Source: Nitrospirota bacterium
GTDB taxonomy: Bacteria; Nitrospirota; Thermodesulfovibrionia; UBA6902; DSMQ01
Direction: 5' to 3'
Assembly: GCA_016208855.1 (NCBI GenBank)
Contig: JACQXF010000078.1
Coordinates: forward strand, 3,491 to 67,490
Length of the DNA: 64,000 nucleotides
The position numbers and the translations under genes were made by a program. Shown here in pieces: positions 14,104 to 58,078 of the stretch; the stretch's first letter is position 1, and every line of letters starts with the position of its first letter. The notes below the pieces were generated by a model, which did not search any database, was not told where the DNA came from, and saw nothing but the letters and a program-made list of their open reading frames with translations.

Positions 14104-14505
14104 TTATACTCGCCTTAAAAGCTTGTTCAGTTCTTCATCAAATGAAAATAGATGGTCGCCGCTATTTAGAGTCTTTGCAGCCAAAATACAATCCACAATG
14201 TCAACATTGCTATCAGAAAAAAGTGTCAATGCATGGATAAGCTCTCTCTGGTCGTCGTTAGCGATTCCTTTATAGTGCAGGATGTCTATTAAACTCCCCG
14301 CTGACTGTTCCTTGGGAACCTTGTATATCTTTGTCAGGACATAGACACACTCAGCAATAACGCTTTCAAGGATTATTGCCTTTTCGCTTCCGTTTTTGAC
14401 TTTATCAAAAAAGGCTTTAGATCTTGCATGCAGGGAGGCATTGTCGCCTATAAGATAGCGGACTATTGTGTTAGTGTCAGGAAGACTTTTTGCCGGTTTT
14501 TTCAC
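14104..14505 (-). CDS. vapC: PIN-domain toxin (VapC-like)
   Basis: Acidic PIN residues (PDTN, DIVD, SFDEE). Overlaps the upstream antitoxin gene. Probable GTG start. Confidence 0.7.
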   Translation of the reverse strand: MKKPAKSLPDTNTIVRYLIGDNASLHARSKAFFDKVKNGSEKAIILESVIAECVYVLTKIYKVPKEQSAGSLIDILHYKGIANDDQRELIHALTLFSDSNVDIVDCILAAKTLNSGDHLFSFDEELNKLLRRV

Positions 14506-14731
14506 GCACCGCTTCCCCCCACGCCTTGTCTTTCATCTGTTTCATTGTCATGTCAGGCCTAAGATTTTTTGCGTATTCTCTTAGGGAACCAGCCGCATCC
14601 CGAACCGGCTTTACTGTAACAGTATCATCTTCAACTTCAAAATAAACCGTGTTTGTCTTAAGTTTATCCCTTATTTCCTTAGGAATCGTAACCTGACCTT
14701 TGCTTGTTATCTTTACTGCCGCTGTTGTCAT
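14477..14731 (-). CDS. vapB: AbrB/MazE/SpoVT-family antitoxin (VapB-like)
   Basis: N-terminal swapped-hairpin motif KGQVTIPKEIRDKL. 84 aa. Overlaps vapC by 29 nt. Confidence 0.65.
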   Translation of the reverse strand: MTTAAVKITSKGQVTIPKEIRDKLKTNTVYFEVEDDTVTVKPVRDAAGSLREYAKNLRPDMTMKQMKDKAWGEAVREKTGKKSS

Positions 14732-46460: not shown

Positions 46461-46991
46461 CTATACCTCCTTGCCGGTAACATTCTTAAGCTCCGGCCTT
46501 CTACCTATATTTTCAGTCTCTGTCTTGCCGATAATACAGAGCCCTTTAGGGGTTAGGGCGGCTAACTCTTGTGGAAGGTTCTCATTTGCAAGCGTAGAAA
46601 CTGCCACAGGTGCATTTTTCTCCACAACAAAATACTCGCCTATTACAGGAGGCCAGGTGTCACCGGCTACCTCAAACCCGCAGCTATCGCCAAGAGATAA
46701 GGCAGCCATGGCGGGATATTTTGCCGTCAAAAGACTCATTGCCTCAGGAGGGATACAGAATTTGCATTTAAAGCATGAATACTCCATGGGTTCAAGCTCA
46801 TTCATCCATCGGCATACATCCTCATGAAGGCTTCTTGCATCATCTTCATTGACTGAGAGCAAAGATGTGCTGAGGTTTACGAGGGTAGTTCGCATGCAGC
46901 CGCACTTCCTGCATTTGCCAAGCCCCATTGATCTCTTTAATTCAGAGTGAACCTTTTCAAAAAGCGGATTCATTTGCTCTATTATGGACAA
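46461..46991 (-). CDS. Cys-rich hypothetical protein (possible metal/Fe-S binding)
   Basis: CRKCGCM, CFKCKFC and further Cys. Confidence 0.4.
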   Translation of the reverse strand: MSIIEQMNPLFEKVHSELKRSMGLGKCRKCGCMRTTLVNLSTSLLSVNEDDARSLHEDVCRWMNELEPMEYSCFKCKFCIPPEAMSLLTAKYPAMAALSLGDSCGFEVAGDTWPPVIGEYFVVEKNAPVAVSTLANENLPQELAALTPKGLCIIGKTETENIGRRPELKNVTGKEV

Positions 46992-47295: not shown

Positions 47296-49191
47296 CTATG
47301 CTATTGCCTCTTTTTTAATGCTGTCAAGGAGTTCTGCTATCCTGCCTGATATTCCCTCCATATCCTTGTAAATCCTCTCTGCCTTTGCTTTGTCTCCTGA
47401 ATTGTGTACTGAAACCGCCTCTTTTGCCAGTGAGTGTATCTTTGCATGCGGCTCATCTATTGCTTTAAAAGAGTGTAAGTTTCCACACGTCTGCATTCCG
47501 TCTCCGAAATACCACTTTCCAAACCTGCAGTTGTGATGGTCAGGCAGCTGTGAAGGGTCAATGGCCGTGCTGTCCTTTAGGCATGATGCGATCTTCCCCA
47601 TAAACAACCTGTGGTCTGTCTTTGCAATATCAAGTATCTGAAGTCCGCTTTCCTTTGTTTTAAATCCTGATACGGCTGTCCTTAGCGCCTCTGCAGTAAG
47701 CGTTAATGAGTTAACCTCCCGTATCACATCATCAGACATCCTCTCTATCTCCTGTGCCGTGCTTGAGGTCTCCTCTACGCTCCTTGAAACCTCCTCCAGC
47801 GCTGCAGACTGCTCTTCCACGGCTGTGGCTATCTGTGTTATAAGGTCATTTACGCTTGCCACATTTGTCACTACATCTTGTGATGATTTATTGACCTTCT
47901 CTATCAGACTCACCGCATCTGCCGAGCCTGTCTGTATCTCTCCTATAATGCCTGTAATCTCTGATGATGCCTTTGACGTCCTCTCTGCAAGCTTCCTTAC
48001 CTCCTCTGCCACTACGGCAAAGCCCTTGCCGTGCTCCCCTGCGTTTGCTGCCTCAATTGCAGCATTTACAGCCAGAAGGTCAGTCTTATTTGCTATCTCA
48101 TTAATAAACATTATCACCTCTCCTATCTTCCTGCTCTTCTCACCCTGCTGGTTTATGATAGAAGATGTCTCCTTAACAAGCCCTGCCCCCTTTTCAACAG
48201 TCAAGGATGATTCCTTTGACAGTCCGCTTGCATTTGATGTTGACCTTGCTATCTCCGCGATAGTTGATGTAATTTCCTCTACTGCCGTGGCTATCTGAGA
48301 TGCCTGTGAAGACTGGTTTTGTGCGCTCTCTATTGTCTTCTGCGCCCTCACCCTTAATACATCCACTGTAGAGACCACATTATTTGCAGAAGCAACGATT
48401 CCATTTATCATGGCGTTGAAGGATTGAATCATTTTGTTCATGCTTTGAGCAAGTACGCCGATCTCATCCTTTGATTTTGTTTCCAGCGCCTCAACAGCCA
48501 GATTGCCTGTAGCTATCTCCTCGGCAGCCCTTGAAATATGCGTTAACGGCTTTGTAACGGAGTTTTTCAAATTCCTTACAAGAAGCACGCCACCCGTTCC
48601 TGCGAGACCGATGAGAAAGACAAATATCGTTGTTATCCTTAATCCATTCATTATCATCTTAAACATCTCGTCTAAGGCCTTTTCTCCTGCCCTATCCGAC
48701 TCATTAACAACAGCGGCAACCCCCTGGATTACCTTATCGCAGGCCTTATCATATTCGTCCATCACCATGTCTCCCTTTGCACGGTCTATAAGATATGCAT
48801 TGAACATTTTGACGCCTGTTTCCCACATCTTAGGGAGGTCATTTTTTAAAACTCCAAGTTTATTACTGATTCCCTTATCACCCTTCTTCAGTTCCAAAAG
48901 CCTGTCAATATCCTTGTATGCTGCATCAAGAGATGGCTTAGCCTCCTCGGCTATGACCTTTTTATCCTTAGTCAAAGAAGCGTCAGTAAAAAATTGCCAT
49001 ACATTGGCGACTTGAAACTGCAGGTCTTTCCCTGTCTTTATCTCCTCCTGCACGTAGCGGTAATTTGCGATATCGGCTTTGAACTCCCTCAGTTCACCAA
49101 TTACAAAGACAGCAAAAATAAGAAATATTGAAATGATAATAGCGAGGGAAAAGTATAGCTTTTTCTCAATTGTCAATTTTATAAAACCCAC
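47296..49191 (-). CDS. Methyl-accepting chemotaxis protein with a C-terminal CZB (chemoreceptor zinc-binding) domain
   Basis: TM helix, HAMP, MCP signalling domain, then [11 protein letters not shown]...H...H. GTG start with a GGAGG RBS at 49191; the ORF-track extension to 49284 has no RBS. Confidence 0.75.
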
Positions 49192-49482
49192 GTTCAACCT
49201 CCAAGTGCAATAAACTGATTTTCCCCCATTACCAGAAGCCAGCCATCTTCTGTCATCAATCCTGCTATGGCTGCCCCCCCCCAATCTTACTTTCTCTTTT
49301 CTTATCGGAAACTGCCATTAGAACTTTATTAACATTTTGTAAATTTGCTGTGAATTTTATTCTAATGAAGGTATAGCAGAGGCAGCCTGCTTCGGCTCAC
49401 CTCAGAAAATACAGTTAGTTAAAACTAAGGGAAGGCATTAAAGCCTTTTTAAAAGGCCTCTTCTGGATTATAATAAAAGCAA

Positions 49483-51003: not shown

Positions 51004-52350
51004 CTACCCCATATTTGACTTTATAACACCGGCTATGCCGTCAGCAATTGACTGGATGTCCTGCATAACCTCTCCCTCGATCATTACCCTTATCTTGGGC
51101 TCTGTCCCTGATGCCCTTACAAGCACCCTGCCTTTGTTAAGCCTCTTTTCCGCATCTTTTATGGCATCCATAACAATGGGAAACTCTTCAATCTTTCTTG
51201 ATTTTTTTACTGCCACATTCACAAGCACCTGCGGATAAATTATAATAGGCGAGGCAAGCTCTGAGAGCGTCTTTCCGGTTTTACGCATTACGGCAAGCAC
51301 CTGAAGCGCTGTTACAGCGCCGTCTCCTGTAGTGTTATAATCCATAAAAACTATATGGCCTGACTGTTCACCGCCGAGGTTATATCCGCCCTTAAGCATC
51401 TCCTCAACAACATATCTGTCTCCGACAACGGTTCTTATTACATCTATTCCCTGTGCTTTGAGATACCCCTCAAACCCGGCGTTGCTCATCACCGTTGCCA
51501 CAACCGTATCGCCTTTTAATAAACCGTCCATCTTCATATCCACAGCACATATGGCCATTACCTTATCACCGTCTATCAGCTCCCTTTTTTCATCACAAAG
51601 TATTGCCCTGTCAGCATCTCCGTCATGGGCAATTCCTATGTCTGCCCTATACTCAAGCACTGCCTTTTGCATAGCCTCAGGGTATGTAGAGCCGCATCCT
51701 GCATTTATGTTTATGCCGTCAGGCTCGTCATTTATTGCTATAACCTCAGCGCCAAGCTCTTTAAGCGCAGAAGGGGTAATCCTGTAAGCAGAGCCGTTAG
51801 CGCAGTCAACAACAATCCTCATCCCTTCAAGGGTCTTGCCCTTTGGAAAAGATGCCTTTACATACTCAATATACCTGCCCCGCGCATCATCAATCCTGAA
51901 TGCCTTACCTATGCCTGAACCGGTAGGCCTCACATTGTCAAGGTTATCTGAAAATACCGTCTTCTCTATCTCTTTCTCCACGCTGTCAGGGAGTTTAAAG
52001 CCGTCTGATGAGAAGAACTTTATGCCGTTGTCATCATAAGAGTTATGGGATGCGGATATTACAATGCCTGCATCAACCCTGAGGCTTCTTGTTGCAAAGG
52101 CAATCCCGGGTGTGGGCATAGGCCCTACAAGGGCAACATCCATGCCCATTGAGCATATGCCTGATGTAAGGGCGCTCTCTATCATATATCCTGAGACCCT
52201 TGTGTCTTTGCCAATAAGTATGATGTCTCTGGCATAATGTTTTTTCTTAAGTATATAGGCTGCGGCGCGGCCCACTTTAAAGGCCATCTCCCCTGTCATT
52301 GGATATTCATTTGCCCTGCCCCTTATTCCGTCTGTACCAAATAACTTCAC
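51004..52350 (-). CDS. glmM: Phosphoglucosamine mutase
   Basis: MKLFGTDGIRG...GIVISASHNSY...GDGDADR. Confidence 0.9.
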   Translation of the reverse strand: MKLFGTDGIRGRANEYPMTGEMAFKVGRAAAYILKKKHYARDIILIGKDTRVSGYMIESALTSGICSMGMDVALVGPMPTPGIAFATRSLRVDAGIVISASHNSYDDNGIKFFSSDGFKLPDSVEKEIEKTVFSDNLDNVRPTGSGIGKAFRIDDARGRYIEYVKASFPKGKTLEGMRIVVDCANGSAYRITPSALKELGAEVIAINDEPDGININAGCGSTYPEAMQKAVLEYRADIGIAHDGDADRAILCDEKRELIDGDKVMAICAVDMKMDGLLKGDTVVATVMSNAGFEGYLKAQGIDVIRTVVGDRYVVEEMLKGGYNLGGEQSGHIVFMDYNTTGDGAVTALQVLAVMRKTGKTLSELASPIIIYPQVLVNVAVKKSRKIEEFPIVMDAIKDAEKRLNKGRVLVRASGTEPKIRVMIEGEVMQDIQSIADGIAGVIKSNMG

Positions 52351-53000
52351 TTTATCCTCCTTACATATATACTAACCTTAACCTCAGGCGTAAAAGTCCT
52401 TATGCCTCTTTTCGGCATATTAAGGTTAACGCTATAATGAAGGTCTCCATCTATGCCTGTAATGTCCACAGGCTCTGTTTTAACAGAATAGACCTTTGCC
52501 ACAGCGCTTGCAGGGCCTTCTATCTCTATGTTTTTAGGCGTTACTGATATGCTTTTAACGAGAAAGCCTTCTGCTGGAGAGCCTGTAATAATAGGGGTAA
52601 CTACAACCTCTTTTTTAAGCCTCTCTTCAAGCACAAGCATTACTGTCTGAGGCGATATCTTTGTGGCAACAAGGCTTTTTGGCAGCCTGATATTGTCCGG
52701 GGTTATGGCAAATAAGTTCTCGCCTTTTTTAGAGTTCTTAAGGTCTATAACAACGCCTACATGTTCTTCCCTGAGAGCTTTAAGCAGTCTCTCCTGCCCT
52801 TCTACATTGATGCTCACTGTCTTAGCTCCGTCTATGACTTCTATCCCGGAAGGCATATTCTTAAACCCTATGGGAACATCCAGAACAATTCCCGAGCGTC
52901 CCTTTGATACGACAAAAAACCAGAGCGCTATCGCTATCAGCAGGGAGATTACCTTCAGCAGGGGATTCGTCTTTATAAACTCTATTATTTTATCGTTCAT
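52347..53000 (-). CDS. cdaR: YbbR-domain protein (CdaR, CdaA regulator)
   Basis: N-terminal TM helix plus YbbR-like repeats. Lies between cdaA and glmM as in the conserved cdaA-cdaR-glmM operon. Confidence 0.7.
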   Translation of the reverse strand: MNDKIIEFIKTNPLLKVISLLIAIALWFFVVSKGRSGIVLDVPIGFKNMPSGIEVIDGAKTVSINVEGQERLLKALREEHVGVVIDLKNSKKGENLFAITPDNIRLPKSLVATKISPQTVMLVLEERLKKEVVVTPIITGSPAEGFLVKSISVTPKNIEIEGPASAVAKVYSVKTEPVDITGIDGDLHYSVNLNMPKRGIRTFTPEVKVSIYVRRIK

Positions 53001-53024: not shown

Positions 53025-53683
53025 TCATTTCTTCTCTTTTGGCGCTGCAAATAATTCAGTAAGAAAGTCCCTTAATGAGCCCATATCCACATTCTTCTCA
53101 AGCACGCCGCCTACGGCAGTGGCAATGCTCCCTGTCTCCTCAGACACGATTATAACTACGGCGTCAGATTCTTCGGTAAGGCCAATGCCTGCCCTGTGCC
53201 TTGTGCCAAAGTCCTTTGAAGTGCCTGCGCTCAGCGTGAGGGGGAGAAAACAAGTGGAGTGCCTATTTCAACAATCTCATCCAGGGCTGTCTCTCTTTCA
53301 AGAACAACAAGCGCCCCTATCTTTCTGTTTGCAAGGGCAATGGCTGCCTTTACAATCTCCTCAAGTGCGTGCAGTTCCTCTGCCTGTGCATGCAGGGGCA
53401 GAAAGCGCGCCCTGCCTACCTCTGCCAGGGTCTTGCGAATTTCAGGCTGAAACAGGACAACAAGGGCAATGACTACCTGCGCCCAGAAGCTCTGTATAAT
53501 CCAGTCCATTGTATAAAGGCCCAGGTATCCTGAGAATGAAAAGGCGAAGATCAATGCGCCAAGGCCGATAAGCATCTGCACAGCCTTGGTGCCCTTTATG
53601 ATCAGAAGCACCTTATAAACTATGATCGCAACGAGCAGTATATCAAGAACGTCCTGCCAGCGTAGTTGTCCTAATATTTCCAT
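53025..53683 (-). pseudogene. cdaA: Diadenylate cyclase CdaA disrupted by a frameshift and ~35-codon internal deletion
   Basis: Frame 1 (53231-53683) gives 3 TM helices and the DAC N-terminus up to ...ALDEIVEIGTPL. A second frame (53025-53240) gives ...GTRHRAGIGLTEESDAVVIIVSEETGSIA.... The segment carrying the DGA motif is absent. The junction sits at a G5 run near 53240. Confidence 0.6.
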
Positions 53684-53810: not shown

Positions 53811-54551
53811 TTATTTAAACTCCACAGAAGCCGCAGGGTTAAAGGGGTTTGTCCTGATTGCAAATGAAAAAAGGTAGGGGTAATCCTTTCTCAGATGCTT
53901 TATATAGGCGAGCCATTCAATAATTAAAATAGCATATGCCCTCTTAATGTCAATCGCTACATGCTCATGGTCTCTACGAGAGAGATTCCCTACATCTGTC
54001 CTGTTGGCAAGCTCTTCAGCAAGGTGAAATACTGCCCAGAGGAGGTCTGTGAAAGAGTCATGCTCAAGGAGATTGGGGTTTTCAAGAAGGCGTATCAAAA
54101 AATCCATCTTCTCCCCAAAGAAGGCCTTTAGCGCAATTAATTCATCCCTGCTTACATCTATCTCGCCCTGATACTTTTTAAGGTCTTCTGAAATCATAGC
54201 GAATCTCTCTTCTGTCCAGTTTTCTGTCATGAGAAAAGGCTCCCTGATGGAATCAACATTTTTATCAAAACTTATAAATTTCTTAAGAAGCCCTGTTCCT
54301 ACCTCAGTGAAAAAGACCCCGATAACCATATTCATCTTTTTAAGCATGATTCGTTTCTCTCTTATACTTAGAAGCTTATTTAATATGAGCGTAACAAGAA
54401 GCACCTGAATTGGAATAAATGCAATGTCCTGAAAAAGATAGAAGAATGTATCCCTCGGCGCATGGAAGATCCTCACCTGAATAAAATAGATACCAGCGGA
54501 AAATGCTATTAATGATATTGCTAAAATACCCTGCCATCTAATCCGGTTCAT
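53811..54551 (-). CDS. Hypothetical membrane protein (2 N-terminal TM helices plus a cytoplasmic domain)
   Basis: ORF with a plausible RBS. No recognisable motif. Confidence 0.4.
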   Translation of the reverse strand: MNRIRWQGILAISLIAFSAGIYFIQVRIFHAPRDTFFYLFQDIAFIPIQVLLVTLILNKLLSIREKRIMLKKMNMVIGVFFTEVGTGLLKKFISFDKNVDSIREPFLMTENWTEERFAMISEDLKKYQGEIDVSRDELIALKAFFGEKMDFLIRLLENPNLLEHDSFTDLLWAVFHLAEELANRTDVGNLSRRDHEHVAIDIKRAYAILIIEWLAYIKHLRKDYPYLFSFAIRTNPFNPAASVEFK

Positions 54552-54668: not shown

Positions 54669-55575
54669 TACCCTCTATCCCCTGAGGAGTTATTCACAGA
54701 AGTTCTGAAACTGTGTGCAAAGGCCGGGATGGTAAAGATAGGCTTGGTAGCATTGGATGGGACGAAGATAAAGGCCAATGCAGCCCTTGAATCAAACCGT
54801 ACATATGAACATATAGAGAGCGAAGTAAAAAGGATGCTTGCCGAGGCCAAAGATGCAGAAGAGGATAAACTTTACGGCAAAGACAAGCGTGGAGACGAGT
54901 TGCCGGAAGAACTGCAGGAACGAGGGAGTCGTCTGGCGCGGCTGAAAGAGTTCAAGGCGCGATTGGAACAAGAGAAGGCTGAAAAAGCAGCCATGCAGAG
55001 AGAGAAGATAGAAGAGAGGCAGAAGCAGGAAACCGAGATCGGGCAAAAGAAGCGGGGTCGCAAGCCGAAAGAACCGGAGGCGGCAGCCAAAACTGATGCA
55101 AAGGCAAATGCAACTGATCCCGACAGCAGGATAATGAAGACACGCTCAGGCTATGTGCAGGGCTACAATGGATAGGCAATGGTAACAGAAGAGCAGATAA
55201 TCATCTGTGGCAGAACTTACCACAGAAGAAAACGATGTAAAGCAACTGATCGAAAGCAGAAGAAAGCATTGTGGAATTAGAGTTAAGCGGCAGGCGGTAG
55301 GAGAGGATAGGCCTCCTTGTGGACGCATACCCGGGAGCTTGTCTTTACGGGAGCGAATGGCGCGTAAGCTTCAAACAAAACGGGGACGGGCATTATATAA
55401 AAAGAGGGGACAGATTGTTGAGCCGATTTTTGGACAGATAAAAACCTGTCGGGGGATACAGAAGTTCATGCGGCGCGGATTTAAAGCTTGTGCCAAGGAA
55501 TGGAAGCTCATCTGTGCTTCGCACAATTTGTTGAAGTTATGGCGCAGTGGGGAAATGGTGGTCAATGGGACTTAA
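54669..55575 (+). mobile_element. Degraded IS1182-family transposase (N-terminus missing, internal frameshift around 55175-55207)
   Basis: ...LFTEVLKLCAKAGMVKIGLVALDGTKIKANAA...TDPDSRIMK...GYVQGYN, then in another frame ...IVEPIFGQIKTCRGIQKFMRRG...ICASHNLLKL. No terminal inverted repeats seen. Confidence 0.65.
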
Positions 55576-55694: not shown

Positions 55695-56852
55695 ATGTCC
55701 GTGCAACGGGCTCTTAACAGCAGGATAATAAATGCGCAGGCCATTGATATCAAGCCTCAGGACTACTTTGCTGCTGCCACAAAGGCAATTGATACAGGGT
55801 ATGAACTCTACTATAATGCAGTACCTGTGCTTGATAAACTTTTAAAGGAGCGTTTAGACAGCCTCTTGGTAAAGCGCAATACTGCCTTAGTTATATCAAT
55901 CTTTGGGATTCTTGCTGCCGTATATCTCTTCTCAGGTTTTTATTTTTCCGTAATGCATTCCTTGCAGAAGATGCAGGGGGCTGTGACACGCATAGCCGGC
56001 GGAGACCTTACAGAAAGCGTTGAGATTGACACAAGGGACGAACTCCGTCAGCTTGCATCAGCGATAAATGAGACAAGGCAGTCGCTCTCTAAAATGATAA
56101 ATCAGATTATCCAGTCAGCTAATAGCGTAGTCTCTTCTGTTGATATACTCAGGCCGAAATCAGAGAAGGCGTCAGGAGGGGCCGTAAAGCAGGCTGAAAG
56201 CGCAACTCAGATAGCCACGGCAGTAGAGGAGATTACGTCAACTATCGCAGAGATAGCAAGGTCAACCTCAAATGCAAGCGAGCTATCAAAAGAATCATCC
56301 AAGACTGTTGAAGAAGGGGCAGGGCTTATTAAGGAGACTTCCTCTATCATAAATGCACAGGGAGAGAAGAGCCAAAAAATAGGGGAGGTCATAAGGTTTA
56401 TTAATGAGATAGCGAGCAAGACTGACCTATTGGCTGTAAATGCGGCAATCGAGGCAGCAAATGCAGCAGAGCATGGCAAGGGCTTTGCCGTAGTGGCAGA
56501 GGAGGTAAGGAAGCTTGCAGAGAGGACATCAAAGGCCTCATCTGAGATTACAAGTATTATAGATGAGATACAGATGGGTTCAACTAATGCAGTGAGCCTG
56601 ATAGAGAAAGTCAACAAATCATCACAAGATGTAGTGTCAAATGTGGCAAACGTAAATGACCTTATAACACAGATAGCCACAGCCGTGGAAGAGCAGTCTG
56701 CAGCGCTGGAGGAGGTTTCAAGGAGCGTAGAGGAGACCTCAAGCACGGCACATGAGATAGAGAGGATGTCTGATGATGTGATACGGGAGGTTAACTCTTT
56801 AACGTTTACGGCAGAGGCACTAAAAACAGCTGTATCAGGATTTAAAACATAA
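55695..56852 (+). CDS. Methyl-accepting chemotaxis protein, 5'-truncated paralog of the 47296-49191 chemoreceptor
   Basis: Begins inside a periplasmic sensor domain (no TM1), then TM, HAMP, and a signalling domain ~90% identical at protein level to the CZB chemoreceptor. Ends right after the signalling domain with no CZB. Immediately downstream of the IS remnant. Confidence 0.6.
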   Translation: MSVQRALNSRIINAQAIDIKPQDYFAAATKAIDTGYELYYNAVPVLDKLLKERLDSLLVKRNTALVISIFGILAAVYLFSGFYFSVMHSLQKMQGAVTRIAGGDLTESVEIDTRDELRQLASAINETRQSLSKMINQIIQSANSVVSSVDILRPKSEKASGGAVKQAESATQIATAVEEITSTIAEIARSTSNASELSKESSKTVEEGAGLIKETSSIINAQGEKSQKIGEVIRFINEIASKTDLLAVNAAIEAANAAEHGKGFAVVAEEVRKLAERTSKASSEITSIIDEIQMGSTNAVSLIEKVNKSSQDVVSNVANVNDLITQIATAVEEQSAALEEVSRSVEETSSTAHEIERMSDDVIREVNSLTFTAEALKTAVSGFKT

Positions 56853-56928
56853 AGAACCCCTACGTTTTATCTTTGGCAGACACAAGGCTCTCTTGGAAAT
56901 TCCTTAAAAACTATGTTAACCTGAGGGC

Positions 56929-57849
56929 ATGAAATTAAGCGAACATATCCTAAGCCTTATTGGAAACACCCCTCTTGTTAAGCTGAATCATATCCCTCAA
57001 AAAGACTGTGCTGAGATATGGGCAAAGCTTGAAGGATTTAATCCCGGCGGCTCTGTAAAAGACCGAATTGCCCTTTCAATGATAGAGGCAGCAGAAAGAG
57101 AAGGAAAACTCCTGTTAGGCGGAACTATAATTGAGCCTACAAGCGGCAATACAGGAATAGGTCTGGCAATGGTTGCGGCAGTTAAGGGTTACAAGTGCAT
57201 CCTTACAATGCCTGAGACAATGTCTATTGAGAGAAGGCAGATATTTCAGGCCTTTGGAGCAGAGGTGATACTAACAGCCGGAGAAAAGGGAATGATGGGG
57301 GCAGTTGAGGAGGCAGAGCTGCTGCTTAAAAAGAACCCTGAATATTTTATGCCCCTGCAGTTTGAAAACCCGTCAAATCCTGAGACCCACAGAAAAACAA
57401 CGGCAAAGGAAATCCTTGAGGCCCTTGGCGCTGATATAGATGCCTTTGTTGCAGGGGTCGGCACAGGGGGTACAATTACAGGCGTTGGTGAGGTATTAAA
57501 GGATAAAAATCCGCAGATAAAAATTATAGCAGTTGAGCCCTCTAAATCTCCTGTGCTCTCAGGAGGAGAGCCCGGGCCGCATAAAATTGCAGGCATAGGC
57601 GCAGGTTTTTATCCGGGTGTTTTAAACACAAAGGTTTACGATGAGATAATACCTGTAAATGACGAAGACGCCTTTAACATGACAAGACGGCTTGCTAAAG
57701 AAGAAGGTATATTGGCAGGCATCTCATCAGGGGCAGCATTATGGGCAGCTATAAAAATAGCACAGACGCTTGGAGAAGGCAAAAGAGTTGTGGTTGTTTT
57801 TCCAGACCGTGGAGACAGATATTTGAGTACCGGTGTCTTTAGTCTTTAG
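56929..57849 (+). CDS. cysK: Cysteine synthase A (O-acetylserine sulfhydrylase)
   Basis: PLP-binding SVKDR and GNTGIGLA, 306 aa. Confidence 0.9.
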
Positions 57850-57880
57850 CTGGCAAGCTTATTAGCTTACCAGCCTTACA

Positions 57881-58078
57881 TTATCCCTTGCTTGCCTTAA
57901 AACAATCATCCCGCCAGAGACACCGGGTCTGCGAGCATACCCCTGTTGTGGCTGTGCCAAAACAGTCAAAACTTCCCTCTGCCCGCTGGATAGTCTTGAT
58001 AATATCTGCCTTTCTCTTTAAGTTTTTTATTATTACCTTTTTCTTCTTGGCGATTTCCTGTAATTCCTTAATAGTCAT
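57881..58078 (-). CDS. Small protein with a Rho_N/SAP-like N-terminus and a 4-Cys C-terminal knuckle
   Basis: MTIKELQEIAKKKKV...ADIIKTI then CFG...CSQTRCLWRDDC. Overlaps the PilZ gene by 4 nt. Confidence 0.35.
   Translation of the reverse strand: MTIKELQEIAKKKKVIIKNLKRKADIIKTIQRAEGSFDCFGTATTGVCSQTRCLWRDDCFKASKG

Follow-up and report, generated by a model that had tools for sequence, protein, structure and literature searches.

The diadenylate cyclase gene cdaA carried by this contig lacks one internal segment of 106 nucleotides, which is present in contigs assembled independently from DNA of the same strain, and the missing segment encodes the catalytic core of the enzyme. We consider that the deletion stems from a local error in the consensus, or from a library or chimeric path that the assembler or scaffolder followed, and give this reading a probability of about 0.68. 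The cdaA gene of the organism itself is evidently intact, and the lesion is not a sign that the lineage has ceased to make c-di-AMP. In what follows, "the window" means the whole stretch of DNA that was analysed (64,000 nucleotides).

The cdaA gene as written in the window

The features of the locus that are needed here are the following:

53683 to 53025, minus strand: cdaA, with the ATG at 53683-53681 and the stop codon at 53027-53025
53231 to 53683, minus strand: cdaA 5' piece, with the three-TM CdaA_N domain, the linker and the first ~34 positions of the DAC domain
53025 to 53252, minus strand: cdaA 3' piece, in the -1 frame, C180-K254 and stop, with GTRHRAG (RHR)
53251 to 53252, minus strand: deletion junction, with the dinucleotide TG at each end of the lost segment (2-nt microhomology)
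53240 to 53244, plus strand: G5 run, read as C5 in the coding direction, unchanged in the intact allele and not a lesion
52347 to 53000, minus strand: cdaR, intact, 217 aa, YbbR domains
51004 to 52350, minus strand: glmM, intact, 448 aa, four PGM/PMM domains, last gene of the cdaA-cdaR-glmM operon

Translation from the ATG of cdaA gives 144 native residues in a first frame (frame A, 53683-53252, codon 144 being 53254-53252), from MEILGQ to LERETALDEIVEIGTPL (...EIVEIGTPL), followed by six out-of-frame residues, VFSPSR, and a stop (53251-53231). The rest of the gene is read in a second frame (frame B) from 53252 to 53025, as CFLPLTLSAGTSKDFGTRHRAG...KEKK and the stop codon, with CFLPLTLSAGTSKDFGTRHRAGIGLTEESDAVVIIVSEETGS at its start (CFLPLT), and this 3' piece cannot be translated from the cdaA start codon.

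Using Pfam, we located CdaA_N (PF19293) at residues 6-82 of the 5' piece (32.7 bits for a cut-off of 23.8), and the DAC domain (PF02457) divided between profile positions 2-34 in the 5' piece and 69-118 in the 3' piece (E 4e-15). TIGR00159 is divided in the same manner, with matches at positions 12-148 in the 5' piece (99.3 bits) and 182-247 in the 3' piece (76.7 bits), both below the cut-off of 188.8, and an HMM of 33 CdaA relatives matches 1-144 and 179-254 in the two pieces. DAC profile positions 35-68 are absent (33-35 positions, DGA included); no DGA motif was found in any frame of 53025-53683, and the RHR motif (GTRHRAG) is kept solely in the out-of-frame 3' piece. A complete DAC domain in one frame, at the family cut-off, is found in the intact allele described below and not in the window copy. 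Since the core that contains DGA is missing, no active diadenylate cyclase can be made from cdaA as written in the window.

The locus resembles that of CdaA (DacA) of Listeria and Bacillus (structures 4RV7, 6HVL and 9G69) in its operon order, its three-helix N-terminus (PF19293), its DAC flanks and its RHR motif, but the window copy, frameshifted and without DAC positions 35-68 and their DGA, is not functional as written. An earlier, sequence-only reading of this DNA had given the coordinates of cdaA exactly, with one frame running to ...EIGTPL and the GTRHRAG part in another, as translation and Pfam confirm. It had also estimated that about 35 residues including DGA are missing, which agrees with the absence of DAC positions 35-68 and with the loss of D145-G179 by the 106-nt deletion, and it had rightly described cdaR and glmM as intact, the first having its YbbR domains and the second all four of its PGM/PMM domains. 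Its conclusion that cdaA appears inactivated is valid for the sequence as written and does not extend to the organism, for which a contig with an intact 254-aa gene is available.

The intact allele in independent assemblies of the same strain

Using an exact look-up of the CdaR protein of the window, we found a Logan contig of 2802 nt from run SRR12113402 (L002), which is 100% identical to window 54839-53251 (1589 nt) and 53252-52144 (1109 nt) and has, at the cdaA junction, 106 nt that are missing from the window (L002 1590-1695). This contig encodes an intact 254-aa CdaA that has HDGA at residues 164-167 and GTRHRA, and whose residues 12-251 align with solved structures of CdaA (9g69, E 1.8e-53). 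Three further contigs were compared: L004, from run SRR12113406, is 100% identical over the same 1589 nt (window 54839-53251) and continues with 97 nt of the segment; L003, from the same run, is 100% identical to window 53221-52144; and L005 matches window 56768-58037. Over the ~5.9 kb of non-overlapping sequence in these four contigs, the 106-nt segment is the sole difference from the window. Both pieces of cdaA are 100% identical to the intact allele, with no further decay in either. The claim that cdaA might be a strain-specific pseudogene is contradicted by L002 and L004, two contigs of the same strain that contain the segment, and with an intact allele in the same strain a compensating cyclase becomes unnecessary.

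Had a deletion allele been abundant in these reads, one would expect the de Bruijn graph to branch on the left side of the deletion; neither L002 nor L004 shows a contig break at this point. The identical CdaR protein occurs on Logan contigs from two runs, and the exact CdaR product and the exact product of the gene upstream of cdaA (246 aa) are on record in SRR12113402 and SRR12113406 only. The truncated 150-aa product is absent from the gene-position index and appears in the protein cluster table only as the NCBI entry of the metagenome-assembled genome (MAG) itself. The closest database protein is an intact 254-aa CdaA on a Logan contig ~95% identical in DNA.

The assembly of SRR12113406 has a gap of 38 nt across the junction region (L002 1687-1724, window 53259-53222), between the end of L004 at L002 1686 and the start of L003 at 1725, 31 nt past the segment. 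This gap shows that the locus was hard to assemble in that run, and it may reflect low coverage, as the length of the Logan contigs (1-3 kb) suggests.

A single deletion of 106 nucleotides

When the 106 nt are re-inserted between window positions 53251 and 53250, L002 is reproduced at 2802 of 2802 nt, and this re-insertion alone restores the 254-aa cdaA ORF. The lost segment corresponds to codons D145-G179 (DAKVSRELLLSIFHPTSPIHDGAIVIKGNRIVAAG, containing the catalytic HDGA) plus one base, and since 106 = 3x35+1, one deletion explains both the 35 missing residues and the change of frame. The junction reads CCACTTG joined directly to TTTTCTCCCCC, which can also be written as GGCACTCCACTTG joined to TTTTCTCCCCCTC; in the intact allele, the left end of the segment reads CCACTTG followed by ACGCTAAGG and the right end GCAGCAGGCTG followed by TTTTCTC.

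Neither a hairpin nor a matching direct repeat was found at the deletion ends. Repeat-mediated slippage was considered and rejected, the sole repeats nearby being short and imperfect, with spacings of 114 nt (ATTGTTG..AGGC) and 144 nt (AGGCACT.CA) and not 106. Hairpin-mediated slippage was rejected also, the DNA fold being weaker than that of shuffled sequences (z = +1.6).

The sequence-only reading had attributed the frameshift to the G5 run, and such a single-base error at a homopolymer, with the DGA segment lost separately, would place the change of frame close to where it is observed, the run lying 7-11 nt downstream of the frame-change point in the coding direction. This explanation has practically no chance of being correct. 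On the coding strand the C5 run forms part of TTT CTC CCC CTC, read as F-L-P-L in the native downstream frame, and it does not differ in length or sequence between the window and L002, where it stands in frame; the deletion by itself already gives the frame change, the 106 nt put back alone yield the exact 254-aa ORF, and the correction of a single base would not restore cdaA. As the run is identical in the intact allele, a homopolymer frameshift is refuted.

Conservation of the operon in relatives

For comparison, we considered 80 related loci from GTDB species representatives, Thermodesulfovibrionia and Nitrospirota at 60-75% identity and then Acidobacteriota and others. Alignment with CdaA from these relatives, an approach that the sequence-only reading had put forward, gave the segment in 79 of the 80, with an uninterrupted match across residues 140-185 and both DGA and RHR present; in the remaining one, the locus is cut by a contig end. 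HDGA is invariant in 33 relatives. As to gene order, at least 76 of the 80 relatives have cdaR after cdaA, and at least 70 have glmM (raw neighbour counts, 80 for cdaR and 72 for glmM, include the same-strain contigs). A search of the 64 kb for Rfam families, and hence for a c-di-AMP riboswitch, and for tRNAs gave no match.

Directly upstream of cdaA, a gene at 53811-54551 (minus strand) encodes a membrane protein of 246 aa that has no match in our Pfam scan and for which, under an identical product, a precomputed table gives PF27246/PF27232 (MJ1433_N/C). A conserved partnership of this gene with cdaA was rejected: it lies upstream of cdaA in the same-strain contigs only and in none of the 80 relatives.

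Origin of the deletion

An error, rather than a real sub-population, is in our judgement the most likely cause of the deletion. The operon is the conserved cdaA-cdaR-glmM of an uncultured groundwater Nitrospirota (Thermodesulfovibrionia-like) bin, and 106 consecutive bases of cdaA are missing from the deposited assembly, which removes codons 145-179 and shifts the frame by one base, with translation predicted to end six codons later. The source could be a mis-join, or a minor or chimeric read path, in MEGAHIT assembly and IDBA-UD scaffolding; at most the deletion would be a low-frequency allele that the assembler followed. The neighbouring run SRR12113421 belongs to PRJNA640378, a study of Californian groundwater (He et al. 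2021), and from accession adjacency and 100% sequence identity we infer that SRR12113402, SRR12113406 and the MAG belong to the same project; several MAGs whose names begin with NC_groundwater_ are among the relatives. In that study, assembly per filter or co-assembly was performed with MEGAHIT defaults and followed by IDBA-UD scaffolding, and no curation of local errors is described for ordinary bins (He et al. 2021). The MAG is uncurated, and both pieces of cdaA were deposited as NCBI proteins under "MAG: Nitrospirae bacterium", on a contig of 69,877 nt that was reached by way of the protein cluster table. Searching for exact copies of the left flank (31 nt) had yielded no hit among GTDB representative genomes and none among JGI metagenomes.

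According to a study from the same laboratory (Chen et al. 2020, Genome Res 30:315; PMC7111523), scaffolds of this kind often contain local assembly errors; it counted 13 in one genome of 1.13 Mb, described the errors as "suspected to be particularly prominent in IDBA-UD" and reported that incorrect protein sequences reach public databases through them. At 13 errors per 1.13 Mb, about one would be expected per 64 kb. The cdaA lesion is like these errors in being an isolated discrepancy that breaks a gene, in MEGAHIT and IDBA-UD output, with disagreement at one spot; it differs in that such errors are usually tied to repeats, whereas the deletion ends in cdaA share 2 nt only, with no repeat or hairpin. 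A generally error-prone assembly was rejected as an explanation: long ORFs cover 91.5% of the window, cdaA is the sole broken housekeeping gene in it and the only other broken gene is a transposase remnant. Against a pure software artefact, a jump of 106 nt over a 2-nt microhomology needs reads that contain the junction, and since a graph assembler cannot join sequences sharing 2 nt without junction reads, the library probably contained some molecules, real or chimeric, that bore the deletion.

The same requirement for junction reads in MEGAHIT, with ends that share just 2 nt, speaks for the main rival, namely a real and very young allele, present in part of the population, that arose by illegitimate recombination at the TG microhomology and reached, in the sample of the MAG, a frequency sufficient for the assembler to take it. 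A short microhomology is moreover typical of genuine deletions. The carriers would be devoid of c-di-AMP derived from CdaA and would survive owing to oligotrophic, low-potassium groundwater or to another cyclase; c-di-AMP-null mutants of Firmicutes are reportedly viable in low-potassium minimal medium. We regard such an allele as unlikely, though still as a serious candidate. Both runs with the locus on record assembled the intact form, with the left junction unbroken, and the absence of any other difference over 5.9 kb would make the allele extremely young. It would also knock out a gene that 79 of 80 relatives have kept and place a premature stop ahead of glmM, an essential gene of this operon, and the expected rate of local errors in MAGs already covers one event per window. 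A cdaA-null sub-population that actually segregates alongside the wild type, its DGA core removed by a 106-bp deletion of very recent origin, is a little more doubtful again. Spontaneous null alleles of cdaA/dacA in Firmicutes are alike in that the sole visible DAC-domain gene is knocked out while cdaR and glmM are preserved, but these are cultured laboratory strains with phenotypes, whereas here the deletion is known from a consensus and an intact copy exists in the same strain. Such nulls survive only where potassium is low or the medium is minimal, or when suppressors are present.

A fixed pseudogene, with cdaA lost in the lineage and DisA or another cyclase encoded elsewhere compensating for it, is very improbable. 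It would account for the presence of the lesion in the deposited consensus and for an annotation that split the gene into two proteins, but the lesion is not shared by independent assemblies of the lineage, the segment being present in same-strain DNA in two independent run assemblies (L002 and L004). Neither piece has undergone added decay, and cdaR, for which no role other than with CdaA is known, is still intact. No second DAC domain was found in the 64 kb beyond the two pieces of cdaA (33-sequence HMM, six frames, filters off), which likewise speaks against this reading.

Public annotation of the broken gene

The two halves of the broken gene are treated by NCBI as two real proteins and not as a pseudogene. 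The first, MBI4687686.1 (150 aa, "hypothetical protein HY756_07875"), is identical to the 5' piece (53231-53683), and the second, MBI4687685.1 (69 aa, "DisA nucleotide-binding domain protein"), corresponds to the last 69 codons of the 3' piece (53025-53234); the apparent start codon of the latter is CTG, rendered as M. Both the operon and the enzyme are well known, the broken form has already entered public databases as two wrongly annotated proteins, and on the evidence the broken cdaA is best classed as no real biological feature. Its biological weight is small and its value lies in the caution that it brings to public protein entries: anyone surveying the pathways of this MAG would be misled into recording c-di-AMP synthesis as missing or unusual. 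Were the deletion allele genuine, it would provide a modest natural case of c-di-AMP dispensability outside laboratory Firmicutes, and a null sub-population would be evidence, in situ and outside the Firmicutes, that cells in oligotrophic groundwater of low ionic strength can dispense with c-di-AMP synthesis by CdaA, or that it is selected against there under some conditions.

Other loci in the window

A degenerate transposase remnant lies at 54729-55575 (plus strand), with ORFs of 148 and 122 aa in different frames, of which only the second matches a DDE transposase (PF13751 positions 59-125 of 125, the C-terminal half); the N-terminal part is absent and there is no second copy in the window. 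L002 and L004 both start at window 54839, inside this remnant, which suggests that the element is repeated in the metagenome. L002 and L003, from different runs, both end at window 52144, inside glmM, where no repeat of the region was found in the window; these ends look like a branch of the assembly graph, as could result from strain variation or from k-mers shared with related Nitrospirota. For the GlmM product with a GTG start, an exact look-up among called genes gave no record.

An apparent split gene at 14104-14731 (minus strand) proved to be two overlapping ORFs that form an ordinary pair of a PIN toxin and a MazE/AbrB-type antitoxin. Genes for methyl-accepting chemotaxis proteins flank the cdaA locus at 47296-49284 (minus strand) and 55695-56852 (plus strand), one of them with a C-terminal CZB zinc-binding domain, and share a stretch of 89 nt with 90% identity (47650-47737 and 56768-56856). 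Finally, the gene at 46461-46991 (minus strand) encodes a protein of 176 aa with a weak match to MtrA (PF04208; 27.3 bits for a cut-off of 25), the subunit A of tetrahydromethanopterin S-methyltransferase, which is unexpected in a Nitrospirota genome.
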